A program made the position numbers and the translations under genes. From an uncultured Candidatus Peribacteria bacterium (GTDB lineage Bacteria; Patescibacteriota; Gracilibacteria; BD1-5; UBA2023): a stretch of DNA of 64,000 nt. The stretch spans positions 20,998 through 84,997 of the forward strand of contig CAZUBA010000001.1 of assembly GCA_964618565.1 (NCBI GenBank), read 5' to 3'. Within the stretch, counting starts at the first letter, position 1. Each line of letters begins with the position of its first letter. The notes beneath the pieces were generated by a model. The model saw only the letters and a list, made by a program, of their open reading frames with translations, had not been told where the DNA came from and ran no database searches. Below, piece after piece: positions 3,212 to 40,918 of this stretch.

Positions 3212-4645
3212 TTAATCCAAGTATTTCTTAAAAAGATCATTGAAAATTTTTGGGTTTCATTGACCTTTGCTTTCTTTCATAGCTTGTCATACGAAGTATC
3301 AGAAAAGATTCACTTTTCAAGCTTTATAATCAGCTAATTGGGCTGGATTATTTTCAATGACTTTTTTAACCACTTCTTCTAGTGCTCATAGATCATTTTT
3401 CTGTCTTAATCATAGTCTGTCTGCTATTTCTCAAGTGTTTCCTCAATTTCTGAATAATTCCTCAATTACAGCCTTCGCATTTGTAGATGATAATTCTTCT
3501 TTATTGATAAGGTTTATGACTTCAGCAAGTTCATCGGCCTTGAATTTCAAATCATTAAATCAGATATCTTCAGGAGATTCTTTAAAATGAGCAAGCAGAA
3601 CAGTTGTAATATATGAGCAGGATTTTTTAGGATCATTAGTCAATTTTACAAGGTTTTCAAAATAGTCTGAGATCGGCTTCTCATTTGATAAAATCCTAGC
3701 ATCATCTTCCTGAAGCTTATACTCTTCAAGATATCTGATTCTCCTATCCATTGGCAGTTCGCTTATCTGTCTTTCTTCAATGTATGCTTTTGTAAGAACA
3801 AGCGGCGGAAGATCAGGCTCTGGAAAATATCTGTAATCCATCGCATCTTCTTTGCTCCTAAGTGATTGGGAAGTTCATTTTTCATCATTCCATCATCTTG
3901 TTTCCTGATCTATTTTTTCTCATTTTTCATACATCTTAACTTGACGCTTGAATTCAGTGTCTATTGCTCTTCAGATCGATGCGAATGAATTCATATTTTT
4001 GATTTCGACTCTATTATTTAGAATATTCTCTCATTTCAGCCTTATTGAAATATTCACATCACATCTCAGTTGTCATTTATCCATATCAGCATCCGATGCT
4101 CAAGAGAATCTTATGATTTTCTGCAGCTCTTCCAGATAGGCAAGCACGTCTTCTTTTGACCTGAAATCCGGCTCAGTTACTATCTCCATTAGGGGGCTTC
4201 ACACGCGATTGAAATCACAAAGTGTTTTTGTTCAGGCATGCACCAGCTTTCAGGCATCACTTTCTATGTGCATCCTGTTAATTCTGAATGTTTTGAGTTC
4301 AGAGCCTACAAAAGCCTTTACTTCTCAATGTTCGACTATCGGGTGATATAACTGAGTTATTTGGTAACCTGTAGGGGAATCGGGATAAAAATATGATTTC
4401 CTGTCGAATTGTGATTTTTCATTTACTGTACACCTCATTGCGTGCCCAGCTTTAACTGCCAAATTCACAACTTCTTTATTCAGAACCGGCAACATTCAGG
4501 GAAATCACATGCAAATAGGACAAACATTTTCATTTGGCTCTTCAGCTAATGCTACTGCATTTTTACAGCTGCAGAACATTTTGGTTGCTGATTTGACCCT
4601 TACGTGTGTTTCCAGTCACATCACTATTTCATATTTTTCGTTCAT
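3212..4645 (-). CDS. gatB: Asp-tRNA(Asn)/Glu-tRNA(Gln) amidotransferase subunit B
   Basis: 477 aa: [17 protein letters not shown]...CPICMGFPGMLPVLN...[13 protein letters not shown]...[13 protein letters not shown]. The ORF-track piece 3560..3841 is an internal fragment of it. Confidence 0.95.
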
Positions 4646-4886
4646 GTTTTTGTTGTTATTGGCTATATTTACTGTTATTCTGGACTTGATTCATAATCTA
4701 AAAAATGAGATAACTCCATTTAATAGGTTTTTGGTGTCCATTGAATGACAAATCGTTTGGAAAAAACTGGATAATTTTATAATTTTTATTTTAAAATGCA
4801 AATCAAATAGGCATAAATCAAGTCACTTTTGACAACTTTAGGATTTTATGATATACTCAAGGCAGTAATTTTTTTTTAAAAAATAA

Positions 4887-5938: not shown

Positions 5939-6703
5939 ATGTCTGATTCTACATTAATTAAGGAAATGCTGGACAATGCAGTCCACATCTGATACAAGAG
6001 ACAATATTGGTCTCCAAAAATGAGAGATTACATACATGGTATCCAAAACGGAATCCACGTTTTTGATCTTTATAAGACTTGTGCTAAGCTAGAAGAAGTA
6101 AGAGCTATTCTTGCAAATCTTGCTGAAAACGGAAAAGAAGTGTTAATCGTTGGTACAAAAGTTCAGGCTAGAGACCTTGTTAAGGAATTGGCAATCTCAA
6201 CTAATCACCATTTCGTTATCGATAAATGGGTTCCAGGACTACTTACAAACTTCTCGACACTTAAAAGAAGAATCTTCACATACAATAAATTAGAAAAAGA
6301 CGCTGAAACCGGAGTTCTTGATATGCTTACTAAAAAAGAGAAAGCTATGAAGATGAAGGAGTTAGAAAAGCTTAAAAAAGCTTACGAAGGACTTAAAGAA
6401 CTTAAAAAGACTCCAGATGCAGTATTTGTTATCGATGGACATTACGAAGGACTTGCTCTAACTGAGGCTAGAATCCTTAAAATCCCATCATTTGCACTTC
6501 TTGGTTCTACTGGAGATATTGATTCTTGTACAAATTTCATTCCTTGTAATGTAAATTCAATCAAGGCAATCAAATTCATGCTTGATCAATTAAAGCCTAC
6601 ACTTACTCGCAAAAAAATAGAAAAACCTTTTGCTGCTCCTGAAGCTGCTAGGCCTCCTAGAAATCCAAATCCAATCAAAAGAGATAGAGTTCCAACTGCA
6701 TAA
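5939..6703 (+). CDS. rpsB: 30S ribosomal protein S2
   Basis: MSDSTLIKEMLDNAVHI(TGA=G)YKRQYWSPKMRDYIHGIQNGIHVFDL... The track ORF 6020..6703 is the same frame truncated by the TGA at the conserved Gly of VHFGH. Confidence 0.95.
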
Positions 6704-7198: not shown

Positions 7199-7987
7199 AT
7201 GGTAACTGCACAATTAATCAAAGAATTAAGAGAAAGAACATGAGTGGGTATGTCTGACTGTAAGAGCGCACTAGTTGAAACAGACGGAGATATGGACGCT
7301 GCTATTGAACTTCTTAGAAAAAAGGGTTTCGCAAAAGCTGCCAAAAGAGCAGATAACGAAACTAAAGAAGGTAAAATCAAAATCGAGAATGATGGTAAGA
7401 CTGCTTATGTTGTTTCTGTTTCTTGTGAGACTGACTTCGTTTCTAGAAATGAGACTTACGATGAAATGCTTAATAAATTCGTAGAAATCAGAAAAGCTTC
7501 TGCTACTGATGAGGAGGCTATAGCCAAATCTGAAGATCTTAAATCTACAGAATACCAACTTAAAATCGGTGAAAACATGAAAATTCAAGCGCTTTCAAAA
7601 ATTGAAGGAGAAGTAATTGAATCTTACGTTCATTCAAATAGCAAAGTGGCTGCAATTATCGTTGCAAAAGCTGGAACTGATCCAGAAAAACTTAAGATGG
7701 TCGCTATGCATATAACTGCAACTGATCCAGAAGTGCTTTCACCAAGCGATATTTCTGACGAGGCTGTAGCTAAAGAAAAAGAAATCCAACTTGAGCTTAT
7801 GAGTCAAGATCCAAAAAATGCAGGTAAACCTGCTGAAATCATGCTTAAGATCATTGAGGGTAAAATGACAAAATTCAGAGAAGAGAATGCACTTCTTACT
7901 CAACAATTCGTTGTTAATCCTGACCAAAAAGTCCAAGATTTTATCGGAGCTGATTCGATAGTTTCTTTCAAGAGATACGCTATATAA
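7199..7987 (+). CDS. tsf: elongation factor Ts
   Basis: MVTAQLIKELRERT(TGA=G)VGMSDCKSALVETDGDMDAAIELLRKKG... UBA-like N-terminus. The track ORF 7244..7987 is the same frame. Confidence 0.95.
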
Positions 7988-8523: not shown

Positions 8524-8598
8524 AGCCCCATAGTTCATCGGTTAGAATTCAGGATTCCAAATCCTGCGAGCTGTGTTCGATTCACAGTGGGGCTGCCA
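8524..8598 (+). tRNA. tRNA-Trp (anticodon CCA)
   Basis: 75-nt cloverleaf folded by hand. Acceptor AGCCCCA/TGGGGCT, D arm GTTC-ATCGGTTA-GAAT, anticodon arm CAGGA-TTCCAAA-TCCTG, T arm CTGTG-TTCGATT-CACAG, discriminator G, encoded CCA. Confidence 0.93.
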
Positions 8599-10299
8599 AA
8601 TAGATTTACAAGAAAATTCATCGAAAGATGGATTTTTTTGATGGCTTGTTAATGCGAAGATAGGGTACATATTAGGTGTGTGGGATGAAATTTCTTCGTA
8701 AGTCGGTTTTTCTTGAAAAATGAACCTAAATATGAGCTCTATCATCACTGGATTTTCTTTGTCAAAAGCCATTTTGTCAGTGTGTGAGATGCAATTTTGT
8801 ACGAACTTAATAAATTCTGATTTATTAATTTCAAGTGCATTTGAAGTGTTTAATAGCCCTGATCTTTCATTTATTATATCTTCATCAATTTTCTGTAGTT
8901 GCTTCTCAATTATTTCGATAGTCTTAGGGAGATGCAGATATTTGGTTATATTTTCTTCAACTAGTGCCTTCTGAGCTTCAAGCTCTTTAATTTTGTTCAC
9001 TGTTTCTGAGGTAATATTAGTATTTGATTTTGCTTTACTATCAAAATATATTCATGATATATGATCTAGAGCTTTCAATAGTCAATTATTTGGTTTTACT
9101 TCTTTTAGGAATGACTTTATCACCTTATCTGCTTCGTCTCTCCTGACTGAATAATTCTTATGCTTATCTGGTCCTTGAACATTTTTCTTTCATTTACACT
9201 GATAATAATGATGATATGTTCAATTTTTTGATGTTGATTTATTTGGAGTCAAGTAACCTCAACACACAGGGCAACCTAACACTCTTGCAAATGAGTATTC
9301 TGGCCTGTAAGTCTTCCTTTCTTCTTTAATAGGCTCAAAGCTCTCTTTTCATTTTTTTGAGTATATGATTTCTATCACTCATTCTGAATCCTCTATAATT
9401 TGTATCTTTCACCTATTAGCCTTATTCCAAGTGGATATATCTACAAGACTTTGGTATCAGTCAAAATATAGCATTTTAACCGGCTTATGACCGGTCCATT
9501 TTTCTTTCTTTATGCCTGCATACACTGGATTTACCACGAGCCTCTGTAAATACTTTATCGTCAAAGGTACCGGTCATTTATTTTTAAAGGGTCTTGTTTT
9601 AAATCCCATCATATTTATTTCATTTACTATCTCATAATCCGGAATTCATATTTGTCTAAGTTCATATATTTTTTTGAGCCATACAGATTCGATTTCATGA
9701 TTAACCTCTATAACCTTAGCTTTACCTTCATTGTTCTTTATCTTGATATTTTTTAATCAAAAATGTGCTTGTCTTTGATGATATCCATCTTTGGTGTTTC
9801 TTATTTCCTGAGATATGGTTCTTTGAAGCATTTTATTTTTCTCATTCTTTGCCATCATTACCATTAATTCTTCAGCATATTCACTCGGATTTTCAAACAT
9901 AAAATCATACCCATCCGTATTTACTCAATCTATTTCAATAACTTTGAATGCATCTCAAATTACTCAATTTATGTCATATAACTTTACTCAGACATTTTTA
10001 AACATGTCTTTAATTCAATAATGTACATCATGTCATCATCTCGAGTTTCTATCAATATTATATATATAACATTTTGAAATTTTTACTTTAGATGCCTTAA
10101 TGAATTCAAGTGCCTTTTTTATTCAAGGTCTATCTTTTTTGGATCATGTAAATACATCAGAAATAGTCTGTAATAATATTTCTCACTTATTATTAACAAC
10201 CCTCTCAATAGCTTTTTCCTGAACATCGAGGCTATCTCAGAAGCGTCCTTGTTTTTCAGATGATACCCTCGTTAGTCAGATTGCATATATTAGCTCCAT
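8542..10299 (-). CDS. large serine recombinase (integrase)
   Basis: 585 aa: MELIYAIGLTRVSSEKQGRFGDSLDVQEKAIE... (resolvase catalytic-Ser motif). Central recombinase region, then a Zn-ribbon ...GCPVCGGYLTPN...YYQCKG..., then a coiled-coil tail. The last 19 codons (...SIWQPHCESNTARRIWNPEF*) are antisense to the tRNA-Trp 3' half. Confidence 0.9.
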
Positions 10300-10386
10300 A
10301 GATGTGTTATTATATTATAATATTTTTTTGATTTTTTATTTTGTACATTGCTATCTATATATAATACAAATAAATCATCATTTATC

Positions 10387-10527
10387 CTATCATTTTTTAA
10401 TATATGAATCATAGCATACTGATATGAAACTTATTAGCTGACCAAATACAATATCCATTTGATCTTCTTGTATTCAATCTTCTTTAAGTAGCTTTTTGAT
10501 ATGCTCAATTTGATTTTTAGTTAACAT
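10387..10527 (-). CDS. small hypothetical protein (possible directionality factor; speculative)
   Basis: 46-aa ORF MLTKNQIEHIKKLLKEDGIQEDQMDIVFGQLISF..., upstream of and co-oriented with the recombinase. Only position supports this call. Confidence 0.25.
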
Positions 10528-10926
10528 TGCTTCTTATGGTAAGTTTTATCAACCTTGTTGAGTTGTTACCTTTGGATATAAGAAGTTAGAAAAAATAAAT
10601 CTCACACACGGGAAATTGCTTTAACAAATTAAATATAATCCCTCATATGTATAGAAGGATTTTATAGTTTGTTTTATTCATCATATCTGAATAGTAATGT
10701 TTGTTTCTTTCATGAATTGCATATTTTTTGTTTATCAATATAATCGGAGTGCTTACAATACATTTATTTTTTCAATCTTCTTATAACAAGACGGATTTTT
10801 GTTGATTATAAGATTGGGGAGTCATGCGAACTCTCCAATCAACTTGGAAAAGTAATATGTATTGTAAGCTAATATATATGCATGGCTCTCCTAATTATTA
10901 GCTCTAAACTTATGGATTATAAGAAG

Positions 10927-10954
10927 CCGGAATATATATTTTTCCGGTTTTTTT
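10927..10954 (+). terminator. Rho-independent terminator-like hairpin
   Basis: CCGGAA tatatattt TTCCGG followed by TTTTTTT. Confidence 0.5.
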
Positions 10955-10973
10955 ATTCTATAAAAAGAAGCTT

Positions 10974-11591
10974 ATGAAATGCTACAATCATAACGAAAGC
11001 GATGCAGTCGGACAATGCGGAATATGCTGAATATGAATTTGCAGGGATTGCATATCGAATATGACATTTGATAATAAGATCCTATGCAAAAGATGTTCGT
11101 GAAATGCATATACTGAAGTCAAGATAGATGAGAATCTTCTCAAAAAAGATATTCTGCTTGTGTGCAGTTGGTGGATATTATGACTATTCCTGGTCATATC
11201 ATTGTGATGATGACTTATGGAGTTCAGCGGGAAATCTTACATTGGATTATTGGGAATGTCTATAGACAGGTGATTTTGAATCTCATTCATTGCAATGACA
11301 TATTACTTGCTATACAGAATATGGAAATATATACCGTCTATATCAGGCATCTTGCCTGGCTTCTTCACATCAAATATGATAGTTTTGATTATTCTTTATA
11401 TGCTTATGTTTTCAATTGTTTTAAGTTGGTGGTTTCTTTATGTTCTATTTATTTTTCCAATAACTCATATCAGATATCTTAACTGATCATTTTGAAGTCA
11501 GAATAACGGAAAATATATGCTCAAGGTGAGTGGTATATATTTCCTGTTTGCTGTTACTTTCATCGTACTTATGTATTATGGATTGTTCTAA
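10974..11591 (+). CDS. B-box-type zinc-finger membrane protein
   Basis: 205 aa: MKCYNHNESDAVGQCGICGIGICRDCIS...CKRCS (Cys/His cluster), followed by several hydrophobic helices. Confidence 0.6.
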
Positions 11592-11639
11592 ATATGTTGA
11601 TGATACGAAAATACTAAAATTATAGTAGATTTTGATTTT

Positions 11640-11670
11640 AAAGAACCATTGTTATATACAATGGTTCTTT
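11640..11670 (+). terminator. perfect 13-bp hairpin terminator candidate
   Basis: AAAGAACCATTGT tatat ACAATGGTTCTTT, just downstream of CDS 10974..11591. Confidence 0.5.
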
Positions 11671-11822
11671 ACTTATATACATATAATTCTGATTAAAATC
11701 ATGTTAACTCTTATATCATATAGGCAGATATCACATTTTTTAGATTCTTTGTATAAACGGGAATTTATTTTTATTATTTAATCAGTTGAATTTATTTCTA
11801 AATAATATTAACAATATAGCGT

Positions 11823-12386
11823 ATGATCAGGAAAATTATATTAGTTATTTTAATATCAGTAGTAACCAATTCTGTATGAACGCATGCAGAGGGTACTTTT
11901 GGTGACTGATTTAATCTACATATGACTGAAAAACAGATAACAGAGGCAATAAATACACCAACACTTAAGAGACTTGAGGAACTAAAAATAGAGGCTGATT
12001 TATTAAATAAAGAGAGAACAAAAATAATTCTATCTGTTATGTTTTGAGTATTATTGCTTTTTTGCTTTGTATATATGATATCTAGATTTTTAAGAAAAAA
12101 TGAAAGAAGTATTGATCAAAGAGTGGATAATCTCAATGAATTAGCAACAAAATATAATTGGTTTTCCCCAAGAGGCTCTATACCTTGAATATCCGATTAT
12201 ATAAAAGTGTCTTATGTTTATTGCTACTGAACAGAAAATGAGATTAGGCAATTATTTTCTGACTTTGAATATGATTTGCTTTTTGAGGCATATGACTATG
12301 TAAAAAATGATTGGTATGCATTTAAGAAAAAAAGAAATAAATTTGTAAGATTCCTTCTAATACGAAAATTGTTCAGATTGATGTAA
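11823..12386 (+). CDS. hypothetical secreted/membrane protein
   Basis: 187 aa. N-terminal signal-like MIRKIILVILISVVTNSVG and a mid TM segment ILSVMFGVLLLFCFVYMI. Confidence 0.55.
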
Positions 12387-18451: not shown

Positions 18452-20254
18452 ATGGAAGGAAATAATAATTGAAAGTATTTAATAAAAGAGGAGACTGTAA
18501 GCGGACTTACAACACTCCTTCTTGATATAAAGAATAATCACAATCAAGATGAACTAATTGAAAAAATAAAGGATCTAGAAACTCAAATATCAAAATTACA
18601 GAAGACAAAAAAATATTGATTAGTATGGGAAATGGAAAAAGAACCTGAACAAATAGTATTAGATTGCCAAAGGAAATTACCAATCTTGAAAGAAGTAAAA
18701 GATAAATTTCTAAAAAGTGATGAGTCGTGAAAAGCTAATATACTTATTGAATGAGATAATTTTCATGCCCTTCAGGTATTAAATTACACACACAAAGAAA
18801 GTATAGATTTAATATATATAGATCCACCATATAACACATGAAATGCAAATGAATGGAAATATAACGATAAGTATATTGATGATAATGATACATATAGACA
18901 TAGTAAATGGCTTAATTTTATGAGTAAAAGGCTGACTTTGTCTAAGGAACTTCTGAAAGAAAACTGATTAATTTTCATAAGTATAGACGATAATGAACAG
19001 GCACAATTAAAATTATTATGTGATGAAATTTTCTGATCAGATAATTTTATCGCTAATATTATTTGGCAGAGTAAAACTTGATCTAGTGACGCAAAGGGTA
19101 TAGATACGATTACGGAGTATATTTTGGTATATGCAAAAAATAAATTATTACCAGAGTTCACAAAAAATGCAGATTGATATGACAAAAAAAGATATAAATT
19201 AAGAGATGAATATTTTTCAGAAAGATGACCATACTATTTGGATAATTTGGATAGATGATGATTACGTTATCATGATTCACTAAATTACGCAATTTCAATT
19301 CCAGATTGAAGTAGCATATTTCCTAATTGAAGATCAGAATTTTTAAATGATGGATGGACCTGGAAATGGTGAAGGCAAAAGGTTAAATGGTGATTAGAAA
19401 ATGGTTACATTATTTTTAAAAAATCTAAATCTAAAAATAATTGATGGTGAGTTTATTATAAGAATTATTTATACTCTGATAATGAGGGTAATCTTCTAGA
19501 AAGATGAACTCCTCATAAAAATGTTATATCTAATTTAAAGACTTGAGATGGTGCAAGTTCAATAAAAAATATTTTTTGATTTCATGTGTTTAAATATTCA
19601 AAACCTACTGAATTGATAAAATATTTCATTAAGTCTGTTAATCTTCCAAAAGACGCAATTATATTAGACTACTTTGCCTGATCTTGAACAACTTGACACT
19701 CTGTATTAGAGTTAAATAAAGAATATTGATTAGATCTAAAATTCATTATTTGTACAAATAATGAATGAAATATTTGTGAAGAAGTTACATTCGAAAGAAT
19801 TAAAAAAGTTAGCAAAGGTTATTCTAATGACAAATGAGCTAAAACAGAATGATTAGGCTGAAATCTAAAATATTACAAAACCGATTTTGTAGAAGTAGAG
19901 AATGTTCAGTTGATTGATGATAAGCAAAAGTTAGAATTAACTTATAAGGCCTGAGAAGTAATAGCTATTAAAGAGTGAACTTATCATGAAATATCAAAAA
20001 CACCTTATTTTCAATTCTTTGAAAATAATAAGAAATTAGTGTGAATATATTTCATTGAAAGTTCAAAATGAATGGATCAATTCAAAAATACACTTAAGCA
20101 ATTAAGTAAATCAAAAAATGAAAGTGTTATTTATATATTTAGCTACTCTGAACCTGAATATTCTTGTAAGGATTTTAATGTGCCAAATTTGAGAATTGAG
20201 TGAATTCCAGAACCTATTTTAAAAATTTATAAGGAATTGAATAAAAAAATATAA
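18452..20254 (+). CDS. mod: type III restriction-modification methyltransferase (Mod, N6-adenine/N4-cytosine family)
   Basis: 600 aa: ...ANILIEGDNFHALQVLNYTHKESIDLIYIDPPYNTGNANEWKYNDKY...RHSKWLNFM...ILDYFAGSGTTGHSV... Confidence 0.9.
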
Positions 20255-20271
20255 TTAACAATTCATATTGT

Positions 20272-22014
20272 ATGAAAATTATTAATTTTGGTGTAAATAA
20301 TTTTAGATGAATTAACTGATGAATCGAAAATAATAGTATTAATTTTGATTGATCCAATACCTTATTTATTTTTTGACAAAATAATGCAGGTAAATCATCT
20401 TTTTTAAGAGCGTATGAATATTTTTATAATAATACAATTCCTGTTGTCGATGATTTTTATCTTAAGAATCCTGATAATAAAATTGAATTTGTGTTTGAAT
20501 TCGAATTAGATGTAGATGATTTGACAATAATTGAAGCAAGAGACCCTTCTAAGATGGTAAATTTCAGAACAAAATATCTATCAGCAGAAAACAAAGTTGT
20601 TCTAAGGAAAGTTTGGGCTAAAGAAGGTACTAAATTTAAAGATGATAATTTTACTTTCAATTGGACAACCTCTGTTGTAGATAATATTTGATATTGATGA
20701 TTTTGATTACATAATGTTTTTCAATCATGTTTACCTAAGCCAATATTTATAAGTGCATTACCAACAAAAAAAGAAACGGAAGATATTATTAATTCAATAC
20801 TTGAAGAAAAAGCTAAAAGTGTATTAGAAAATAGTGAATTACAAGAATATCAAGAATTAACCTGAAAATTGGCAAGCTTGCAAGAAAAGATGTATGACTC
20901 ATTGGTTATTTCGAGCTATAAAGAGGAAGTTAATGTTCATTTTTGTAAAGCATTTTCTGATATAAAGATTGAATTAACAGAGAAAGATCAAGTTAAGTAT
21001 ACTACAAAGTCTTTTTGAAAAAACTTTGAAATAGAGTTTCAAAGTATAAATTGATGAGAAATAAATTCCAATATTCCAACAAACTGGGACAAAATATGAC
21101 ATTGAGCCATTAGAACAGCAATATTCAACCTATTTTTAATGAAAGATATAGTTGAATGATTCGAAAGAAAAGAGACAAGAAAGGATTATTTAGTATTATT
21201 TGAAGAACCAGAATTATTTTTACACCCTAAGATATTAAGAATTATAAGAAAATTAGTTTATGAAGTTTCATGAGATTCTTATCCATACCAAATATTGTGT
21301 GCATCTCATTCACCTCAAATGATTGACATTTCAAAACCAAAAACATCGTTAATAAGAATGGTTAAAAATGAACAGACAAAACTATTTCAGATAAATGAAA
21401 GCATACTTGAACATGATTTTGAAAAAACTAAAGATGAAATTAAAGACGAAATGAATGAAATACTAAGATTTAATCCATTTATTTGTGAATCATTTTATGC
21501 AGATGAAGTAATACTTGTTGAATGACCCACTGAAGAATTAATAATAAGATGATACCTTAATATTAATGATGATTCGATTGATAAAGATGTTTTTGTAGTC
21601 AACTGTTGAACAGTAACTAATATACCTTTTTATCAAAAAATATTTTCAAAGTTTAATATAAAATACCATGTAATATGCGATACGGATAATGCAAGTAGTA
21701 GTTGAGTTGATACCTTTTGAAATACAATATATTCTTCTTGAATTCAAAAATCAATTTATGAACAATTTTATACTGATAAAAACTCAAGTAGTGAGAAGGC
21801 TTGAAAACTATTGCTTCATCATACAACGTTTGAACCTGCACATAGAGTGGAATCAGTGCCAGAAAGATTAAGAATGCCTTCTGGATATTTAGATTCAGAT
21901 TGAAAACCATTTAATGCTAATAGGTATTGGAAGGAAGTTTTAAGTTTGAATCTAAATGACTCTGAAATAGATAGGGTACCAATAATATATAATATTAAAC
22001 AAATAATTAATTAA
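20272..22014 (+). CDS. OLD-family ATP-dependent endonuclease (ABC-ATPase + Toprim)
   Basis: 580 aa. Walker A FGQNNAGKSS, Walker B LVLFEEPELFLHP, Toprim ADEVILVEGPTEE and HVICDTDN. It starts 17 nt after mod, and res starts 11 nt after its stop. Confidence 0.85.
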
Positions 22015-22025
22015 CCCACATAAAT

Positions 22026-24362
22026 ATGGAACTAAAAATATTTCAGCAAGAGACTTTAGCTGATTTAAGAAAAGCATTTTTGGACTTATGGAAAACTTGA
22101 AAAAGAAGTTTGCCACTAGTTTTCAAAGCTCCTACTTGAAGTGGTAAAACAATAATGACAGCTCAATTTTTAAAAGATTTAACAAATGATCCTCAGTTTG
22201 AAGCTGATATGTGTTATGTATGGATTAGTTTCTGAGAGGACCTAGTAATGCAGAGTAAAAAGAAGTTATTTCAGTATTACTGATGAGCAAGTTCAGTAAA
22301 TCTATTAGATCTGACAAGTCTGACAAACAAGAAGAAGCTGGAAAATAATAATGTGTTTTTTATTAACTGGGAAAAAATCAAATCATCAACGTCAGATTGA
22401 AGAAAATTAAGAAGAGAAACTGAAAAGACTCAATGAGATAAATGAGTTTTTGATGATTTTATACTTAAAACTAGGGAAGAGAGAGAAATTGTATTAATTA
22501 TTGATGAGGCACATGCTTGAAGTAAAACAGATTTAGCGCAAGAAATAATAGATTTAATAAACCCAAGAATTATTTTTAAGATTACAGCAACCCCAAGTGA
22601 TCAAGAAGAGCTGGATGCAAGAAGAAGTTGAAAATATATCGAAGTTGAAAGACAAAAAGTCATCGAGGAATGACTTATAAAAGAAAAGATAGTTACTCAG
22701 ACAAAAGAAGATTTAGATAAAATATCAAAATTGGAGTTAGATCAAGATATATTGCTTCTTGAATTAGCTTATAATAAGAGAAATGAATTAGTTGAGGATT
22801 ATAAAAAACTTTGATTGAATATTAATCCTCTTGTTCTTATACAGTTACCAAATGATGATAAGGCAACAAATGAAGTTCAGGCCAGAACCAAGCTTGACAT
22901 CGCAAAAGAATATCTAACAAATAAATGAGAAACAGATAATAATGTTGCAATTTGGTTAAGCGAAAAGAAAGAAAATCTTGATGAAGTTGAAAAAAACAAT
23001 TCAAGCGTAAATTTCTTAATATTCAAACAGGCAGCTGCAACATGATGGGACTGCCCAAGAGCAAGCATATTGGTTATGTATAGAGAAATCAAAAAGCCGG
23101 ATTTTCATACTCAGACAGTTTGAAGAATTTTGAGAATGCCTCTTTGATATCATTTTGATATTCCTGAAATGAACGTTTGATATTTATATACAAACTACGA
23201 AAGAAATCAGGTTCATTTGCCTGATAGTAATAAGTTATGAGATAATAAGCCATATATCTACATTTCGACAAAAAAAGACGAAATAGACCCTATTATTCTT
23301 CAATCTACATTTTTATGAAGGGTTGATTATAATGATATCTGATGAACACAATTTGAACCTACTTTATTCGAAAACTTTAATGAATATTTTGGCATTAACG
23401 AAAGTGACATTTTATGAAAGGCTAAAGATAAAATCAAATCCAAGTGATTAGATATTGAAAACACAAAAATCACCTACAATATGATCATTGATGTTGAAAT
23501 CGAGAATTATGATGATTTTATTAGAGAACTTCAGGATAAATGAAAAGATATGCAAGCAAACTTATCAATAATTGATATTGAAAGATTGTATAATCTTGAA
23601 TTATTTAATTTCATTGCTCACCAAGATCAAGAAAATAGAAAATATGCTCCTGAAAGATCTTGGTCAGCAGTTAAAAAAGCCCTTAATGTATGGATGAACT
23701 CGTATGTATCTGAAGATAGGAGAGAGTTTTATAAAATAATTGTAAATGATTTTAGAAAGTCTGACAGTGTACTTAAAAAAGTATTATGAGAAACTCTGGA
23801 GAAATATAAACCAATAAGACAAATAGAGGTACAGGAGAAGGAGAAAAGATCAGAAAAGAAAATAGACTTAAACGTTCCAAGGAGAGAAACTTTTTATACC
23901 GATGATTATAAGGAATTTAATGATTTCAAAATTCAAAAAAGTGCTACAGAGCCTTTTTATTTACCAGATAGCTACTCCTGAAGGGTTAATGAAGTTGATT
24001 TTATTAAATATGTGGAAGGTTCAGAGAATGTAGTCTGGTGGTACAAAAATGGCCAAAGTTGATCACAAAATTTTTGAATTAAAAGAATTTGAAAAGATGC
24101 ATTATTTTATCCAGATTGGATAGCAAAACTATCAAACGGTAAAATATTAATTGTAGATACAAAAGATTGAGTTACTGCTAGAGATCCTGAAACAATAGAT
24201 AAGGCGGATAGTCTTCAAAAATGGATAAAAGAAACAGGGAACAAGAATATTATCTGAGGAATTGTTGTAAAGGTGGGAGATATTTGGAGAGTTAACAATA
24301 AAGAGATCTATAAATTTGATGATAATTACTGAGAGTTTATATACTTAAATGACTTATTCTAA
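22026..24362 (+). CDS. res: type III restriction enzyme Res subunit (DEAD/DEAH helicase-nuclease)
   Basis: 778 aa: ...VFKAPTGSGKT..., ...LIIDEAHAG..., ...FKITATP..., ...QAAATGWDCPRA..., ...TVGRILRMP... Confidence 0.9.
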
Positions 24363-24430
24363 ACTTCTATTGAAAAGTTTGGGAAAAGATAAAATGATCA
24401 GCCACTCCAATTGTTAATAAGAGTGATTAG

Positions 24431-24598
24431 GAAGGTATAGCTATTCTAGCTCCACCTCTAAATGAACAAAAAAGACTTGTTAACAAGATTGAAGAATTAA
24501 TGAAATATTGCGATGAACTTGAAAAGCAAATTTTAAATGCGAGAAATAATTCTGAAAAGATAATAGAATGAGTATTGCAAGAAGTATTTAAACATTAA
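24431..24598 (+). pseudogene. remnant of a type I RM specificity subunit (HsdS C-terminal conserved helix)
   Basis: No start codon, and the frame opens right after a TAG. Encodes ...ILAPPLNEQKRLVNKIEELMKYCDELEKQILNARNNSEKIIEGVLQEVFKH*, the typical HsdS end. Confidence 0.6.
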
Positions 24599-24610
24599 TA
24601 TTATATCTTC

Positions 24611-26110
24611 ATGGAAGAAATAAATTTTAAAATATACTTTTCAGATTTCTTTGAAGTAAGTCATGAAAAGATTGAAAAATATTGAGCACTTGATATTTCT
24701 CTCCTTTGTGATAATCCTGCTTTTGTTGACCCATTTCTAATATTTTTTAGTAGTAAGCCAGAATATAAAGAATTACATAAGAATATTATTGATTATATCT
24801 CATACTTAAAAGAAAAGTCTGATGAATGAAAGTTCGAAGAAAGAAATGCTATATTCTCAGAAGTTAAAGAGGTATGGTTATGATTTTCAAAAAACTCTAA
24901 TCTTTGAATATGACTAAATAAGCATTTTGCTAATGAACTGAAAAATAACCTAAGTTCGTTACTAAATAGCGGAGGAGGTATAACAAAAAGTTCACATTTA
25001 GAAAAGTTATGCTTGATTTGAGATAGAGTTTGAGCAGATAAGATAAGCGATTTTACGATTAATCTTATCAAATCTTTCTTGATTGATTATACTCAAAAGT
25101 TTGCAGAGAAAAATATAGATGAGAAGTTTTTTTGCGATTTTAATATACCAAGATCAGTATTTGATTATAGTTTCTGAGAATGGAAAAGTAAAACTGCTAA
25201 ACTTCCTTTTATAATAAACAAGAAAGGTAAAAAGGAATTTGTTTTGCTGACGCCAAAGGATATTCTCGTAAAAGAAAATGGATGGATAACAAAAAACGAT
25301 TATTTAGATCAAGACACTACAATAATCGATAAGATATCCAATACAGAATTAAAAGAAAGAATTAATAAATATTTCATCTGACTAATGCCGAAAAAGAGAG
25401 ACAAGAAAACTGGGGAAATAACTATTGATGATAATAAGGCAAATAGGCAGAAGGCATTGATATGAACTACCTTTCAATATCCTGTATTATTGGATTATTA
25501 TATCAAGGATAAAGAAGAAAATTGAGATAAATCACTAATTAATAACGTTTTTGATACGACTAATATAGAGACCTATCTATACAAATCTGTTAAAATTGCG
25601 ATTGATGATCTTAATAAAAAACAATTTTATGAAAAACAAATTACTTCATTTGAAGAAGTAGTAGAGAAGGTTAAGGTATTTAAGCATTATCTTGAAGATC
25701 GAGATGGATATAAGATTTTCTGGGATTGAGAAGAATTGAAAGTAAAAGAAAATGATGCTCAAATTATGCTTGATTTGATATTTAGCCCATCAAGCTTTTC
25801 TGTTGATAAGGAAATAAATAATTGAAGATGACCTGTTGATTTAAAAGTTTCAAAATGAAAAGACAGCACTTTAATAGAAGTAAAATTGGCTTCAAATTGA
25901 CAAATTAAAAGTAATTTGCAAAAACAATTAGATATATATAAAAAGGCTGACTGAACTGATAATTGAATATATGTTATATTATATTTTAAAGATAGTGAAT
26001 TATCTAAATTAAATATAATTCTAAAAGAAGTTTGATTGTCTGAATATATAGATAAAAAAGTATTCTTAATTGATTGCAGAAAGAAATTGTCAGCTTCAAA
26101 AGTTAAATAA
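24611..26110 (+). CDS. hypothetical protein with C-terminal PD-(D/E)xK-like nuclease motif
   Basis: 499 aa. C-terminus is ...NNGRGPVDLKVSKGKDSTLIEVKLASN... (D...E-x-K). Checked codon by codon for TAA/TAG. Confidence 0.7.
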
Positions 26111-26126
26111 TTAGTTAATTTATAAT

Positions 26127-27290
26127 ATGAAAAACAAACCAAATAAAGAACATATAATTGCACAAAAAGATGAATTAATATCAGAATTCACCTCTCGTTA
26201 TTGGATGCTTATGACTTTCATATTTATTCTTTATGGAGCTATGTGATGGAAAATTTGGCAGAATTTCGATTGATTAGCTAAGTTTTTTGATACATTTAAA
26301 TTTTCAAATTCAATAATCAATAAATATCTGATAGATAATGTTGAAATTTTAATATCCTTTGGCGTTGTATATTTCACAACTTTGGCTTTCTGGAAATTTA
26401 AAAAAGGTTTATTTAATGATTCAGAATATAAAATAAAATTTTGGTCAGGAATACTTGTCCATAGGTTATTCTCAATGGTAATTCTGTCACCATTCATAAT
26501 TTATTTATTGAATAAAACTATCCCAAACGGTGAATACCATATATTTTGGCTTATAGTCGCCTGATTGTTTTATTACTTATTACCATTATTTTTCTCTATT
26601 TGAAGCAAACAAAGAAAAAAGATTACCGATAATAAGTGTGTATTCCTTTTGATTTGCACAATAATGATTTTTATTATTTATTTGTGTTTTTATATAAATG
26701 GCTTTTGGGAGCCAATGATAATTTTATTTGTATCTTGAATTATCTTTCCATCATCAGACTCTCTTTTAAGGTCATATATAGTATCAATTGATAATTTCAA
26801 TTCTATTGAAAAAGTTCATCAAATTAGCTCCGAATATACTAAAAGTTTAAAAGATTGAACAGTTTGAAGTAAGATTACAAACTTCATTTTAGCAATTGAA
26901 ACAACAGAAGAAAATCCTGTATCACTACCACTCGCTTTCGAAAGTCTTGAAATATTATGAAATATGGCTATTGCATGAGCTTTCTGAATAATTGCTCTTG
27001 TATGGTTTTATGATGCAAATATAATTACAGCATTATATATTCATATTACGCTTGTTGTATCAGCCCTTCACCTATGGCTTATATCAAACAAATTTCCTAA
27101 TATAATAGATATTAAAGCTGATTGAGAATGGTATAATTGAGTATTTTTATTAGAACGTTCAGAGGATAAAATCCTAATTATGAATAAAGAAGGAAAAATA
27201 TTATTTAAACCTGATATTGTTTCTGAGATAAGAATGCCTTTTAAACTTATACAAAAAGAAGAAATTATTAATAAAAAATCACCAAAATAA
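26127..27290 (+). CDS. polytopic membrane protein, unknown family
   Basis: 387 aa with multiple hydrophobic helices (e.g. YWMLMTFIFILYGAMGW, CVFLLICTIMIFIIYLCFY, MAIAGAFGIIALVWFY). Starts 16 nt after the previous stop. Confidence 0.7.
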
Positions 27291-27292
27291 TC

Positions 27293-29089
27293 ATGCCGAA
27301 TCTAATAACAAAATCACTATATGTTGACTATCATGAAAGCAATAAACTTGCGTGGTGGAAGATTAACAACCTTCAAACATATAAATTCATAAAATGAATT
27401 GAAGATGAAGAGGAATGAGAAGATCTTAATGTAAAATTAGGTCAGAAAGTAGAAGATGTGGTTGGTGAATATCTTTTCAGGAAGTTCTGAACTAAAAGAA
27501 CAAATGTTTTTGAAGAAGTAAAATTCAGCGAAAACGTAGATGAAGAACAAGAAGATATAATCCTTACTACATATAAGAATGGTATAGATTCAAACATTAA
27601 GAGAACAGAGGAAGCAATTAAACAAAGGGTTCCTATAATTTATCAAGCTTGATTTATATATAATGGGCTTTTTTGTAGAGTTGATTATCTTGTTTTAAAT
27701 TCAAATTGAAATTATGACTTAATAGAAGTTAAAGCCAAGACATGAGTTAGGAAAGATAGGACTTATAAAAAGGTTCCAAATAAATGAGCTTGAAATCTTG
27801 AAGATGTCTATTTAGCAGACATATCTTTTCAGAAATATGTAATTACAAAAGTCTTTGAAGAAAAAGGTCTTTGAATATTAGAAAACAAATATTTTGCTTA
27901 TCTAAACAATAAATATGTAAGGGATTGAGTGTTGGAAATTGAAAAACTAATAGTTTTGGATCGAGTCGATTGTATAAATGAGATACTTCTTATTTGAGAA
28001 GATGACGATAAGAAGGAAAACAGAGATGATAGCTTACAGCATTTCACATGAATTGAAGAATTAGTAAAAACCCTTGAAATAGACATAAATTTATCCGAAG
28101 AAGAATTCAATTCAAAATACCCTTTCAGTTGAAGTAAATACCTGACATATTTTTGAAAGGATAAGCCTTTCTGAACGATATACTGAAAATGACTTACTCA
28201 TAATTGTGTATGAGCTCTTCATCAATTATGAAAAGTCAATCTCGAAGATTTATGTGATGAAGAAGTATGTATGTTTAATAAGGCTGACTGAACAGTATGA
28301 ACAGCAAGAAAATTCGTGGATAATTATCTGCTTTGTAAAACAAACAGGACTTGCATTATAGAGAAATGAGATATCAAGTGAGAGTTAAATAATCTCAATT
28401 ATCCACTATGTTTTTATGATTATGAAACAGTTTCAGTTCCTATCCCATTTCTTGATAAGACTTCTCCATATCAGCAGGTAGTTGTTCAATACTCTCTGCA
28501 TAAGGTTTATGAGAATTGAGATATCAAGCATTATAGCTGAATACTTGCTGGAACATGAGAACAAAAAATTGAGCTTTTGGAAATAAAAGATAATAAGAAT
28601 AAGGTTGATTTTGAAAATGAGAAACTCATATATTGAGATTATAAAGATGTTCTCATGGCCTTGAAGGATGATATTTGAGAAGATATTGATAGAAGTAGTT
28701 TTATAGTATGGCACAAGCCTTTCGAAAATACAAGAAATAAGGAAGTAGCTCAAATATTCCCGGAATTAGGCGATTTCTATTTGAAGATGAATGATAATAC
28801 TTATGATTTGAAGGAGATCTTTTCTAAATGATTGTATTTTTCTCTTGATTTCAAGGGGTCATGCTCGATTAAGTATGTTTTACCTGCATTAGTGCCTGAA
28901 CTAAGCTATGTATGAATGAATGTTCCAAATTGACTTGTAGCCATGAATGAATTGAATAGAATTATAATCTGAGAAGTTAAAGATGATAATGAAAAACTTC
29001 AAAAACTTACTGACCTACTTTTGTATTGCTGACAAGATAGCCTTGCAATGTTTAAAATATATGAAAAAGTTTTAAGTGTATTAAAATAA
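27293..29089 (+). CDS. DUF2779-like protein (RecB/Cas4-type PD-(D/E)xK N-domain + DEDD-like exonuclease-fold C-domain)
   Basis: 598 aa: ...FCRVDYLVLNSNGNYDLIEVKAKT..., ...PLCFYDYETVSVPIPF...PYQQVVVQYSLH..., ...LLLYCGQDSLAMFKIY... Starts 2 nt after the membrane gene stop. Confidence 0.75.
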
Positions 29090-29112
29090 TTATTTCTTAA
29101 TTAACAAAAATA

Positions 29113-30882
29113 ATGATAAATAGTGCCAACAAATATACAATAGCTCAAATTTTTTGAGATGATCCTTCTGTTAAATATACCATTCCAAAATATCAAAGAG
29201 AATATACTTGGAATAAAGATAATTGGGAAGAATTGCTTAATGATATTCAAGAAAATGAATGAAACCATTTTATCTGATCCATTATCTGTATAAATAATTG
29301 AACAGATACCCTATCAACACCAATGCTTGAATTAGTTGATTGACAGCAGAGGCTATCAACTGTTTCTTTGTTATATTGTGCAATACATAAGCTATTATCA
29401 GACAAAAATACCGAGAATGACGAAGATCTTAAAATGGAATTACATATATTAAAGCTTAAACTTATAAATAAGAAAGATTCTAAATCTAAAATGGAATTAT
29501 CACATCAAAACAATAACTTCAATGATTACAAATGAGTATTGAATGAAATCTGATTATTGAAATTTGGTGAAGAAGTTAAAAACAAGTGAAATAGAAAGAT
29601 ATTCAAGGCATTTAGATTTTTTACTGAAAAATTAAGTATCCTTTCAGTTGATGAATTGTTAGAACTTTTAGGAAAAACAAACAATACCTTACTTGTAAAA
29701 ATAGAAGTAAACTCTCATTCTGATGCATTTATGCTTTTTGAGAGTTTAAATAATAGATGAGTGCCACTTTCTGCAATTGATCTAATTAAAAACAAGCTTC
29801 TTGCAGAAGTTGAAAAAAACAAAATTATGGATATTGATGAAGCATTTTTGGACTGGAACAAGATTATCAATAATCTTGATGAATATTCTATACAAGAAAG
29901 ATATTTAAGGCAATATTACAATGCATTTAAATTTGACGAAAGAATAAAAGTAGATTGACAAAGCAAAGCAACAAAATCTAACCTTATCAAGATATACGAA
30001 ACCCTTATTAATAGAGATATAATATATATATTTAGTGAATTAATAGAAAAATCAAGTATCTACCATGATTTAATGCTTCCTAATGAGTCTGAAAATACGC
30101 TTATTAAATGATTACGAAACGAATTAATTGATTTGAATCATGTTAAGGCTGCACCTTCTTATCTGTTTTTACTATATGCTTTTTCTTTCAGTAAAGATAG
30201 AGATGCTGATTTCTATAAAAAAACGGTAAATTTGCTTGTTAAATACTTCATACGCAGGAATATTACAGATTTTCCTAATACACGCAATTTGGACCAAATA
30301 TTCATTGATTTAATACAAGAAATTAATCAAGATATTAACAGATTGAATTTTGAATACATATCTGAATATCTCACTCATCCTTCAAGATATTCTGACGATG
30401 ATAATTTTAAAAAACATCTAAATTGAGACTTATATGAAACAAATATTGATGCTACGCGTTTCATTTTGAGCAAAATAGAAGAATCAAAGAGAACAAAAGA
30501 AACTAAAACTGATTTTTGGCAAAGTGATGATAACAAGAAATTAGTATGGACCATAGAACATATATTTCCTGAATGAAAGAATATTCCGAAAAGTTGGATA
30601 GATATGATTGCAGAATGAAACAAAGAGGAGGCCGAAAGAATGCAAACAGATCTTGTTCATAAGATATGAAATCTTACTTTGACTTGATATAATCAAAACC
30701 TTTCAAACTTTGATTTTGTAAAGAAAAGAGACAGAAAAGATAACAATGATAATTTTATATGATATAAAAATAATCTTTTCTTAAACGAAGATGTTGTTAA
30801 TAAGGAATCTTGGATCAAAGAAAATATTCAAGAAAGAACGGAAAAGTTGGTAAATATTGCATTGGATATATTTAATATATAG
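29113..30882 (+). CDS. GmrSD-family type IV (modification-dependent) restriction enzyme, DUF262 + DUF1524
   Basis: 589 aa: ...IPKYQREYTWNK..., ...LVDGQQRLSTVSLL... (DUF262), and C-terminal ...WTIEHIFPEG...LVHKIGNLTLTGYNQNLSN... (HNH-like DUF1524). Confidence 0.85.
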
Positions 30883-30929
30883 ATCTTAACTTTGTTAAAG
30901 TAATTATATTAGCATTTAATAAATCTACA

Positions 30930-32147
30930 ATGGTAACACACAATCCAAAGCAAATTATAGAACAACTACAGACAATACTAAGTAACCCTTCCAAAAAAAT
31001 ATGATTTCTTTTTGGTGCCTGAATTTCAATGAAAGATATGAGCTGAAAGGATTTAATTCCAGGAGTTGATATTATGACGGATACTGTCATTAAGAAATTT
31101 ACAAAAGACCCTCAAAGATCAGCAATAGAGGTAATAAAAACTGAAATCATTTCTGATTGAAAGAAATTCAATATAGAAACTCTCTTATCAAAAATTTCTG
31201 AAAAAGAAAGAGCTGCATGAGCTGAAAAGTTGTGTTGATTAAGTAAACACGAATTAGAAATATTAAGAAAAGATATCGAAGATGATATATGCAAACAAGT
31301 GTCTATTCATGAACCAGCTTCTGAAAAAGTTAATGTTGAGACAATTAATCATAACACTTTTGCAAAATGGATTAAAAATGCAGACAGAGAATTTCCTGTT
31401 GAAATTTTTACTTTAAATTATGATTATCTTTTAGAACTATCTTTGGAAAATCAAGGAATTCCTTATTTTGATGGCTTTGTGGGTAGTTATAATGCTTTCT
31501 TTTGTCCAGAATGGATTGAAGATGGTTCTCCCGTAAGAGATTGGGTCAAATTATGGAAATTGCACTGATCACTTGGTTGGAGTCAAAATGAAAAGAAAGA
31601 TATCATAAGGACTTCCTGAGCTGCTTGAACCTCAATGATATATCCTTCATTTTTAAAATATGACCATTCAAAAAAACAGCCATATCTCAGTTATATGGAC
31701 AGATTGTCTTATTTTTTAAAGCAAGAGGATGCAGTTTTGTTTACATGCTGATATTCATTCTGAGATGAACATATTAACGAATTGATATTAACTGCTGTTT
31801 CACGTTCAAGATCTTCTAGTGTCTTCGTACTTAATTTTTGAGAATTAGAAGAAACTGACGAGTTGCCAAAAATTGCTATGAATAATACAAAAATATCTGT
31901 ATATGCAAAAAGGACAGCAGTTATAGGATGAAAATTTTGAGAATGGAAATTAGATTGAGAGCCAGATAAAAATGTTTCGTATAATGTTATCGATTTTGGA
32001 TTTGATGAAGATGCAGTAATGGAGGAAGAATGAAAAACAAATACATGGACGGGTAAATGAAATTTTTGGCTTGGTGATTTTAATAAATTCACAAATTTTT
32101 TATCCCATTTTTATTCTAAATCCAAATATATAAAAAATGATAAATAA
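30930..32147 (+). CDS. SIR2-family protein (SIR2_2 type) of a SIR2-HerA pair
   Basis: 405 aa: ...IGFLFGAGISM..., ...IFTLNYDYLLE..., ...LWKLHGSLGW..., ...LFTCGYSFGDEHIN... Confidence 0.85.
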
Positions 32148-40776: not shown

Positions 40777-40811
40777 TAGAATGATTCTTTTTAGAGTCAT
40801 TCTAATTTTTT
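40777..40811 (+). terminator. Rho-independent terminator
   Basis: TAGAATGATTC ttttta GAGTCATTCTA followed by ATTTTTT, directly after the ATPase gene. Confidence 0.55.
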
Positions 40812-40832
40812 CTTATATTAATAATATTCAAG

Positions 40833-40912: not shown

Positions 40913-40918
40913 TGAAAA

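Follow-up and report, generated by a model that had tools for sequence, protein, structure and literature searches.

The closest precedent for a serine recombinase gene that runs across its own attachment site comes from the ssrA islands of Dehalococcoides, in which the open reading frame (ORF) of the CcrB-like recombinase DsiB 'always overlaps attL' and has its stop outside the island, in ssrA or in a neighbouring island; its authors raised the possibility that only the circular form carries a complete gene (McMurdie et al. 2011, PMC3146451). In the Myxococcus phage Mx8, attP lies in the 3' end of the integrase gene (IntP/IntX), and integration creates a new 3' end and an altered, still active enzyme (Tojo 1996, Magrini 1999, reviewed in PMC6070905). 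The genes of the SSV-type ('suicidal') archaeal tyrosine integrases are split on integration (PMC8371274). Islander (2014) states that tRNA genes are not known as targets of serine integrases, and a Prochlorococcus study assigns a large serine recombinase to 27 of 937 integrative elements (tycheposons and related cryptic elements). Here we describe a 64-kb stretch of contig CAZUBA010000001.1 (the window; all coordinates are window positions), in which an island of 32.3 kb (island 1) adjoins tRNA-Trp and carries a large serine recombinase gene that ends inside this tRNA gene.

Island 1 is probably an integrative defence island that was put at the 3' end of tRNA-Trp by its large serine recombinase (integrase), with attP inside the integrase's own 3' end. 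The features on which this reading is built are as follows.

8524–8598, plus strand: tRNA-Trp(CCA), intact, CCA encoded; B arm of attL (ARAGORN).
8542–10299, minus strand: large serine recombinase (integrase), 585 amino acids (aa) in genetic code 25, integrated (attL) form (ORF, Pfam, homologues).
8542–8598, minus strand: overlap, with integrase codons 568–585 and the stop supplied by antisense tRNA-Trp (WQPHCESNTARRIWNPEF and stop; sequence, translation).
8591–8598, no strand: core GGCTGCCA at attL, crossover presumably inside CTGCCA (repeat families D9 and D20).
8599–8640, no strand: P' arm in the integrase ORF (codons ~553–567), with a hairpin and U-run at 8609–8640 placed as intrinsic terminator (fold).
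8599–40912, no strand: island 1, 32.3 kb, with integrase, defence cargo and TraG-like ATPase (contigs, Pfam, GC).
40802–40912, minus strand: P arm, which reads WQP-GDEFPHTLIEMFDRWVELFLLSVNLNIINIRKN and stop in the frame of the integrase and is predicted to supply the C-terminus of the 603-aa excised (attP) form (translation).
40905–40912, no strand: second core copy GGCTGCCA, attR or a tandem junction (repeat search).
40918–40958, plus strand: strong hairpin and T-run directly after the core, either the native tRNA-Trp terminator (B') or else a final remnant of some older element (terminator scan, fold).

Island 1 resembles the DsiB islands in having a large serine recombinase gene beside attL that reads towards a tRNA-like gene (there the transfer-messenger RNA, tmRNA), in its accessory cargo, and in a recombinase ORF that passes over attL without a stop inside the island, here and in 52 of 52 tRNA-overlapping loci of the family treated below. 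Tandem DsiB islands are parted by short direct repeats of the 3' end of the target gene; the window has cores starting at 8591, 40905, 44644, 45638 and 51726, together with relic arms. The target is ssrA for DsiB and a true tRNA here (Trp; in the family also Glu, Lys, Gln, Arg, His, Phe, Ala, Gly, Asp and Tyr), the core has 6–8 nucleotides (nt) as against 20 nt, and the crossover would fall at the CCA end instead of the T-loop. DsiB islands have a companion recombinase, DsiA; the Pfam scan of 21 island ORFs gave no second Resolvase match that could represent such a small serine recombinase. The hosts belong to the Candidate Phyla Radiation (CPR), the one described here using code 25, and a conserved peptide in the far arm is shown here and not for DsiB.

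The other systems differ more. Mx8 Int belongs to the tyrosine recombinases and has a long core, and both its chemistry and its site architecture are unlike those of a serine integrase; its attB sites lie in a tRNA locus. SSV-type integrase genes fall into two non-functional parts, whereas here just the last 18 of 585 codons are changed, the recognised domains are all intact and the enzyme is a serine recombinase. The original prediction, made from the sequence alone, had likened the locus to these split genes and thought it unusual for serine integrases, a view that needs correction because the DsiB overlap and the Mx8 swap were already known and the gene is not split. Islander-type islands use a tyrosine integrase and island 1 a serine recombinase, and it has their typical pair of ends, an intact tRNA at one and a displaced fragment (8 nt) at the other. 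The integrases of phiC31, Bxb1, A118/LI, TP901-1 and SPbeta apparently share the domain order of this one (resolvase, recombinase, zinc ribbon plus coiled coil), and probably also its minimal identity between attP and attB; in classical phage serine integrases attP lies beside int, not inside its ORF, and attB is mostly in protein-coding genes. In the integration-dependent immunity of mycobacteriophages, attP reportedly lies in coding sequence and integration changes the C-terminus and the stability or activity of the product; there the altered gene is the repressor, here it is the integrase, and no degradation tag was identified in the present case. The overlap and the C-terminal swap have precedents in DsiB and Mx8, which the CPR tRNA-targeting clade extends without forming a new category. 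We found no description of CPR serine integrases at tRNA genes in the literature searched, and absence there is not proof of absence.

Recognition of the integrase depends on the genetic code. In code 11 the minus-strand ORF has just 152 aa (8542–9000), as against an unbroken 585 aa in code 25 or code 4 (8542–10299, minus strand, from MELIYAIGLTRVSS to WQPHCESNTARRIWNPEF and stop) with 24 in-frame TGA codons. The window uses code 25, in which TGA encodes Gly, because across four standard-code homologues 47 of 96 cells in the TGA columns of the integrase are Gly, the zinc-ribbon motif CPVCGG..C is restored once TGA is read as Gly, and the window has 111 ORFs of at least 100 aa in code 25 but 16 in code 11. 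This therefore points to a Gracilibacteria-type host; the closest survey loci are labelled Candidatus Gracilibacteria. Several database homologues have been deposited in code 4, with W at TGA, and misnamed 'NUDIX hydrolase'.

By its domains the protein is a large serine recombinase: Pfam recognises Resolvase and Zn_ribbon_recom and, weakly, Recombinase. Resolvase (PF00239) matches residues 6–162 (E 8e-14, 52 bits against a Pfam cut-off of 23), with R11, S13 and Q17 invariant across a 12-sequence integrase alignment and the catalytic domain of TP901-1 as best PDB sequence match. Recombinase (PF07508) scores 18.2 bits at 204–296, just under its cut-off of 21.1, and has a precomputed match in several integrase homologues. 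Whether the last conserved domain ends before the junction had been raised with the original prediction; it does, Zn_ribbon_recom (PF13408, 340–398, 29.3 bits against a cut-off of 25.3) being the last Pfam domain, and the last block conserved in the family (..TPxLYPIFxL) reaches only to residue ~548. In the AlphaFold model of homologue P0011, residues 177–300 form a mixed alpha/beta domain, long paired helices lie at 393–472, as for an inserted coiled coil, and behind these comes a C-terminal helical bundle that would be additional to the fold of classical phage serine integrases.

The tRNA-Trp gene is the single tRNA that ARAGORN found in the window. To its left lie gatB (3212–4801), rpsB (5939–6703) and tsf (7199–7987), and it likewise adjoins tsf in related loci (L001, L002, L010, L014, L016–18). 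The 585-aa ORF has no stop ahead of the junction and ends within the antisense tRNA: the W568 codon (8596–8598) is antisense to the encoded CCA, the stop TAA (8542–8544) lies in the D-loop region, and the tRNA gene holds 18 sense integrase codons plus the stop (57 nt), taking in CCA, acceptor 3' strand, T arm, variable loop and anticodon arm. The WQP of this tail (TGG CAG CCC) is the complement of GGGCTGCCA. The original prediction had read a 585-aa minus-strand recombinase into tRNA-Trp and recognised the WQP complement, and both stand, the first given TGA = Gly. Its 19 codons are correct as 18 plus the stop, the span it listed (T arm, acceptor and CCA) being too short by the variable loop and the anticodon arm. 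It had also placed core genes left and accessory DNA right of the tRNA; the former is confirmed, while the right side is not one element, as island 1 ends at 40912.

The core, the last 8 nt of tRNA-Trp (GGCTGCCA), occurs at 8591–8598, 40905–40912, 44644–44651, 51726–51733 and 45638–45645, the copy at 40905 being where the original prediction had set the second junction. A conserved 67-nt stretch (repeat family D9) precedes the cores at 40905–40912, 44644–44651 and 51726–51733. On the minus strand left of 40912 it extends the integrase frame past WQP, beginning GDEFPHTLIEMFDRWVELF, and the second copy reads GDDFSHTLMDMFDRWVELFNQIKRRIS and stop in the same frame. Pattern searches of public metagenomes recovered this P arm five more times in four other contigs (L005, L006 with two, L007 and L008), in frame after TGGCAGCC and reading (G/E)TGKTHTLTEMFDRW(V/I)ELF..; the pattern had no match in IMG/VR. 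The arm peptide HTLxEMFDRWxELF is conserved in six intact copies from five contigs, a seventh copy being decayed, and a 555-nt contig of run X3 (see below) holds an attP-type junction with the same tail. P-arm copies 1 and 2 (D9-1 and D9-2) have 3, 2 and 9 differences at codon positions 1, 2 and 3, and of the 11 columns that vary in the 14-codon block HTL..ELF of the intact copies, 8 fall on third codon positions (binomial p~0.009, by our own count). That the integrated tail is encoded by host tRNA and would be exchanged on excision, as first proposed, is supported by a far arm that extends the ORF in the same frame and codes for a conserved peptide.

The position of the crossover is indicated by one integrase allele in two contexts. 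L005 and L006 have the arm attached to the 3' end of this allele (..KNPPEGEFLENLG followed by WQP); in L003 the allele runs instead into a tRNA-Trp whose acceptor stem differs (WQ followed by TSRESNSDRRIWSPEF and stop). The L003 attL (tRNA end ..GGTCTGCCA) and the L005/L006 P arms (..AGGCTGCCA) have only CTGCCA in common, and the crossover would therefore lie within the discriminator–CCA stretch. The ends of island 1 are identical over 8 bp, those compared across hosts over 6 bp and those of other subfamilies over 13–19 bp.

We propose the following mechanism. The attP site would consist of the P arm, CTGCCA and the P' arm in int, with predicted junctions ..CGTCTCAAGGCTGCCAAATAGATTTAC.. and ..GGGGAAATTCGTCTCAAGGCTGCCAAATAGATTTACAAGAAAATTC.., and attB of the tRNA-Trp 3' end, CTGCCA and the downstream spacer/terminator, with predicted junctions tRNA..GGCTGCCATGAAAAATCAAATAATCC.. 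and ..TTCGATTCACAGTGGGGCTGCCATGAAAAATCAAATAATCCTCC.. In an attP x attB reaction of the serine-integrase type, crossover would take place within CTGCCA (discriminator plus CCA), so that the tRNA would be regenerated with just 6–8 bp of identity, which is what one would expect of a serine integrase. The free circle would code for a 603-aa integrase with a native C-terminal helix. Integration would swap residues 571–603 (33 codons, moved 32 kb away) for 15 tRNA-encoded residues, taking the protein from 603 to 585 aa, and excision would bring the native residues back.

The tRNA-Trp site is polymorphic in the population. We searched Logan contigs from three runs (X1, X2, X3) of the 2012 groundwater metagenomes from which the sequence derives; these are assembler contigs, from which rare variants are dropped. 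A 63-nt contig joins window positions 8570–8599 to 40917–40946 (depth 3.7 in X1 and 22.2 in X2) and represents an unoccupied allele, with the same tRNA-Trp 3' half directly before the strong hairpin found right of 40912. A further variant in X2 and X3, a 3835-nt contig at depth 8–20, has the tRNA end and 6 nt in common with the window and diverges after 8604 (CATGAAACACAATAAAGACGCC..); it is another occupant of the same tRNA-Trp site.

The overlap extends well beyond this locus. A word search gave 15 integrase homologues, and the full-length homologues of the first protein search all have antisense-tRNA C-termini (..ESN.., ..G[IFLV]EP..) except P0011; this sole word-search homologue without a tRNA tail (L009) is on a contig that is not circular and offers no informative context. 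A survey of one genome per species (GTDB) yielded 170 relatives, of which the best 80 loci were taken for overlap counts; 14 are cut by contig ends, leaving 66 informative species-representative loci. The integrase ORF runs into an antisense tRNA in 52 of these (52/80 overall), a recurrence that argues against chance, and 14 of the 80 loci have no tRNA, ten of them in non-CPR genomes (Proteobacteria or Bacteroidota). The 52 targets are tRNA-Glu (n = 17), Trp (n = 8), Lys (n = 8), Gln (n = 5), Arg (n = 4), His (n = 4), Phe (n = 3), and Ala, Gly and Asp (n = 1 each), with tRNA-Tyr (L012) and tRNA-Lys(CTT) (L011) as further targets, and not one of the 52 ORFs has a stop ahead of the tRNA 3' end. 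The overlap characterises a large and mostly CPR clade of integrases, whose targets span at least ten tRNA isoacceptor types. Many contigs of metagenome-assembled genomes (L029, L051, L066, L067, L069, L086, L088) end within ~100 nt of the integrase 3' end, where the tRNA is expected; assemblies seem to break systematically at integrase/tRNA junctions, hiding the overlap. A search for far-end repeats in the 10-kb flanks of 57 related loci, where most islands are longer than the flank, gave direct repeats of 19 nt (L054) and 13 nt (L068) from the tRNA 3' end, ~9 kb from the integrase; only these two start at the tRNA end, and the other matches (11–13 nt) look like chance.

The integrases that are not joined to tRNAs suggest what the tail may look like in the free form. 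A profile search returned 675 cluster representatives at E<=1e-30, and tail classes were scored on the 121 full-length sequences among the best 150. Tails antisense to a tRNA were found in 69, a native tail ..G[LFI]xWN[TQ][LIF]E..[IV]..W.. (WN tail) in 21–27, and at least eight of the rest stop at WQP[HQ]. The tRNA-tail and WN-tail classes share ..LV..xG[IFLV]x and split right after it, which places the junction at a fixed point of the protein, and relatives not joined to tRNAs keep a conserved C-terminal helix. One of them is encoded on a phage-like contig (L093; endolysin, tail proteins) and ends ..GGQGGSSFEHYLNSLDNWLEELLFDVRRFYIYPLK and stop; its BLASTP alignment with the reconstructed attP-form C-terminus of island 1 runs through the junction (E 4e-7), and for the tail alone 5–11 of 2000 shuffles were as good (p about 0.003–0.005). 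The same contig has an odd tRNA-like gene at 3596–3667, with a 2-nt anticodon (ARAGORN), 1.3 kb downstream of int. In L094, ..VTLRG is followed by IKWNTLENMVKTWNEVF.., with acceptor/T-stem-like antisense just ahead of W, which is suggestive only of an unjoined state. Pairwise tests of the P-arm tail against the WN helix gave p 0.004–0.1; homology of the HTLxEMFDRWxELF tail to this helix is a lead and only suggestive.

Several results weigh against the proposed integration and tail exchange. Island and chromosome have equal depth in the three runs (8.1 vs 8.35, 53.7 vs 50.9 and 101.3 vs 95.1), and neither a circular attP junction nor an exact island 1 excision product is present among the 2012-run contigs, which drop rare variants. 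The 4-nt spacer of the unoccupied allele differs from that of the window (ATGT vs TGAA); this allele is therefore that of a co-occurring other strain and not an excision scar. The original prediction had named an empty site and a circular junction as expected excision products, and only the former, in another strain (X1, X2), was recovered. The arm-joined junctions in Gracilibacteria contigs are all fossil, with integrase relics of at most 70 residues; in them the far arm of a newer element next to the tRNA meets the integrase end left by an older element, and they are not free circles. Dyad symmetry around the core was not above chance in shuffles, and an imperfect inverted repeat spotted by eye in the reconstructed attP was discarded as no better than shuffles. 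As for the tail itself, the last 21 residues of an attP-form homologue have predicted local distance difference test (pLDDT) values below 50 in AlphaFold, giving no confident tail structure, a profile hidden Markov model (HMM) of native WN tails scores Gracilibacteria P-arm tails no higher than shuffles, and the reconstructed attP-form tails of L054 and L068 have no WN-type helix. Integrated tails range from a 13-nt overlap to more than 1 kb of read-through, which fits a tail without importance once integrated.

The alternative that survives best accepts the structure and regards the tail swap as functionally neutral: attP would lie in a dispensable C-terminal linker, the ORF would simply run to the next stop, and P-arm conservation would reflect recent common descent or a constraint on the DNA as integrase-binding half-site. 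We regard this as a serious contender, somewhat short of an even chance. It agrees with essential domains that end about 20 residues ahead of the junction (the conserved block ends at ~548), with the widely differing lengths and sequences of integrated tails, and with the negative HMM test and the disordered or low-confidence AlphaFold tail, and it is the view taken for DsiB (McMurdie et al., PMC3146451). It sits less well with the lack of any stop ahead of the junction in 52 loci across ten tRNA-specific lineages, with the terminal helix retained by relatives that are not tRNA-joined, and with the phage copy L093, which aligns through the junction. Substitutions in the conserved block of the P arm are, moreover, mostly at third positions, and this block lies 24–65 nt from the core start (TGG), largely outside a half-site, which for serine integrases such as phiC31 and Bxb1 is usually ~25 bp. 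A functional reading, in which the tail swap acts as a switch of integrase activity, directionality or stability once integrated, is speculative, and we hold it tentatively; such a switch would possibly be aided by convergent transcription against the abundant antisense tRNA, through the two-way hairpin upstream of the stop. A bolder form of it, which we think rather unlikely, is that a large, mainly CPR clade built attP, by way of a stretch resembling a tRNA 3' end, into the coding sequence of its own C-terminus, with integration deleting and excision restoring a conserved helix as a physical switch between free and integrated states.

It is highly improbable that the locus is a fixed ancestral pair, that is, a domesticated recombinase beside tRNA-Trp in an immobile region, with the overlap an accident of a compact genome. 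The synteny of tsf, tRNA-Trp and integrase in several Gracilibacteria contigs and the equal depth of island and chromosome would suit such a history, but the cargo behind the integrase differs in every genome. The same order rpsB-tsf-tRNA-Trp-integrase is followed by other cargo in L001, L002, L003 and L010, among it a type ISP restriction-modification (R-M) system with Schlafen/AlbA, a type I R-M system with Abi_C, and HamA with a helicase; the comparison with related genomes suggested with the original prediction therefore rules against a fixed ancestral arrangement. Because the related islands carry differing defence genes there, tRNA-Trp is a defence-island hotspot in Gracilibacteria. An island-free allele in the same samples, homologues at ten or more tRNA types and on a phage contig, and relic integrase ends with repeated P arms, which indicate successive insertions, likewise contradict a fixed pair.

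Mobile elements often carry tRNA genes and the ORF covers three quarters of this one, so tRNA-Trp could belong to the element (e.g. as a phage-borne gene), with the true junction further left and a tail that never changes; this is scarcely plausible, as the repeat of the island ends is the last 8 nt of the tRNA and not sequence left of it, an identical tRNA 3' half runs straight into the right flank in the unoccupied allele, the tRNA is the sole one in 64 kb, and it differs between hosts with the same integrase allele (L003 vs L005/L006). Least credible of all is an artefact, either an ORF illusion of the non-standard code or a chimeric contig joined at the tRNA: the ORF does fall to pieces in code 11 and assemblies often break or misjoin at tRNAs, but the TGA columns align with Gly in standard-code homologues, long ORFs number 111 against 16, and contigs from three independent runs cross the junctions with 0 mismatches (8570–12322 in X1, 8575–40946 in X2 and X3), one Logan contig of 32,372/32,384 nt (X2, X3) covering 8575–40946/40958 with 0 differences.

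Each core copy is followed 10–12 nt further on by a hairpin and U-run. The hairpin at 8609–8640 (dG -14.9 kcal/mol, z -6.1) lies in the integrase ORF, whose conserved 'KNP' is the antisense of the U-run, and hairpins that correspond to it but have other stems lie in the integrase 3' ends of L001 and L002. The hairpin at 40918–40958 has a 14-bp stem in the terminator scan and a dG of -24.7 kcal/mol in the fold. Because the hairpin of the occupied site sits inside the integrase ORF, the element would bring a replacement tRNA terminator within its own coding sequence. Positions 2147–2177 match the integrase 3' hairpin over 25/31 nt; they lie within an unrelated gene, and the match was set aside as chance.

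Right of island 1, older att relics and duplicated surface-protein cassettes make up a mosaic at 40913–51832, with the following att-related features.

44586–44652, minus strand: second P-arm copy (WQPGDDFSHTLMDMFDRWVELFNQIKRRIS and stop), core at 44644–44651 (repeat search, translation).
45635–45727, plus strand: attB-like relic made up of the final 11 nt of the tRNA (TGGGGCTGCCA) and a copy of the downstream hairpin (repeat family D12).
51669–51735, minus strand: third P-arm copy, decayed (stop and frameshift), core at 51726–51733 (repeat search, translation).
51734–51832, minus strand: remnant of the 3' end of a further integrase gene (..IYLLFTKLTKNPPEGEFLVNYIWQP), joined to the decayed P arm as a fossil attP-type junction (tblastn).

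The relic at 51734–51832 has 59% identity to the C-terminus of the L001 integrase (E 0.003, tblastn in code 25). The hairpin copy of the relic at 45635–45727 has an insertion in its loop, and the relic may stem from duplication or from a second kind of integration. Between 41049 and 51646 there are three to four diverged tandem cassette copies (63–88% identity), two of which end in a P-arm relic; the cassette codes for a secreted protein of ~970 aa (Big_5, CarboxypepD_reg) and for a small membrane protein of ~165 aa in which Cys residues are conserved. In L006 (AMFJ01028953.1) two fossil attP-type junctions, each with an integrase 3' relic, lie 8.6 kb apart at 2236–2289 and 10832–10885. Since this is a different genome of the same study, arrays of integrase-less cassettes seem to be common. 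The layout of the window, with an intact integrase beside the tRNA, then relic arms, then an attB-like relic, among duplicated cassettes of 970-aa and 167-aa surface proteins, fits entry of new elements at the tRNA-proximal site; newcomers would insert there and older elements would be left behind fossil attP-type junctions as integrase-less cassettes.

Much of island 1 has a GC content of 26–31%, compared with 33–35% in the core genome. Its recognised cargo comprises the following.

18452–24362, plus strand: N6/N4 DNA methylase, OLD-family AAA_15 and TOPRIM nuclease, ResIII helicase (Pfam).
29113–33924, plus strand: GmrSD type IV restriction enzyme, SIR2_2, HerA ATPase (Pfam).
38081–40756, plus strand: TraG/TrwB-like coupling ATPase, the last gene ahead of the P arm (Pfam TraG-D_C, TrwB_AAD_bind and DUF87, weak to moderate).

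Proteins with DUF2779 and DUF2726 are also among the cargo (Pfam). The OLD-family nuclease gene sits between a type III-like methylase and the helicase, within a dense defence stretch at 18452–33924. The TraG/TrwB-like ATPase hints at conjugative mobilisation; no relaxase was recognised in island 1.

The clade contradicts the working rule that serine integrases avoid tRNA genes (Islander 2014) and supplies integrases aimed at the conserved 3' ends of tRNAs of at least ten isoacceptor types. Serine integrases are the main tools for insertion of large DNA, the control of their direction is an active structural question, and integration that edits the enzyme's own C-terminus is a directly testable control principle. 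If the physical switch were real, the swap would tell the enzyme, or the degradation or antisense machinery, which state the element is in, and directionality or the amount of integrase would be set by it, either in place of a directionality factor or together with one; no such factor was identified here. For annotation, integrase C-termini in these genomes are to be read as junction artefacts, and gene callers that use code 11 miss the gene altogether. The hosts are members of the Candidate Phyla Radiation, for which there are almost no genetic tools, and tandem insertion at one tRNA would explain where defence islands build up in their small genomes.

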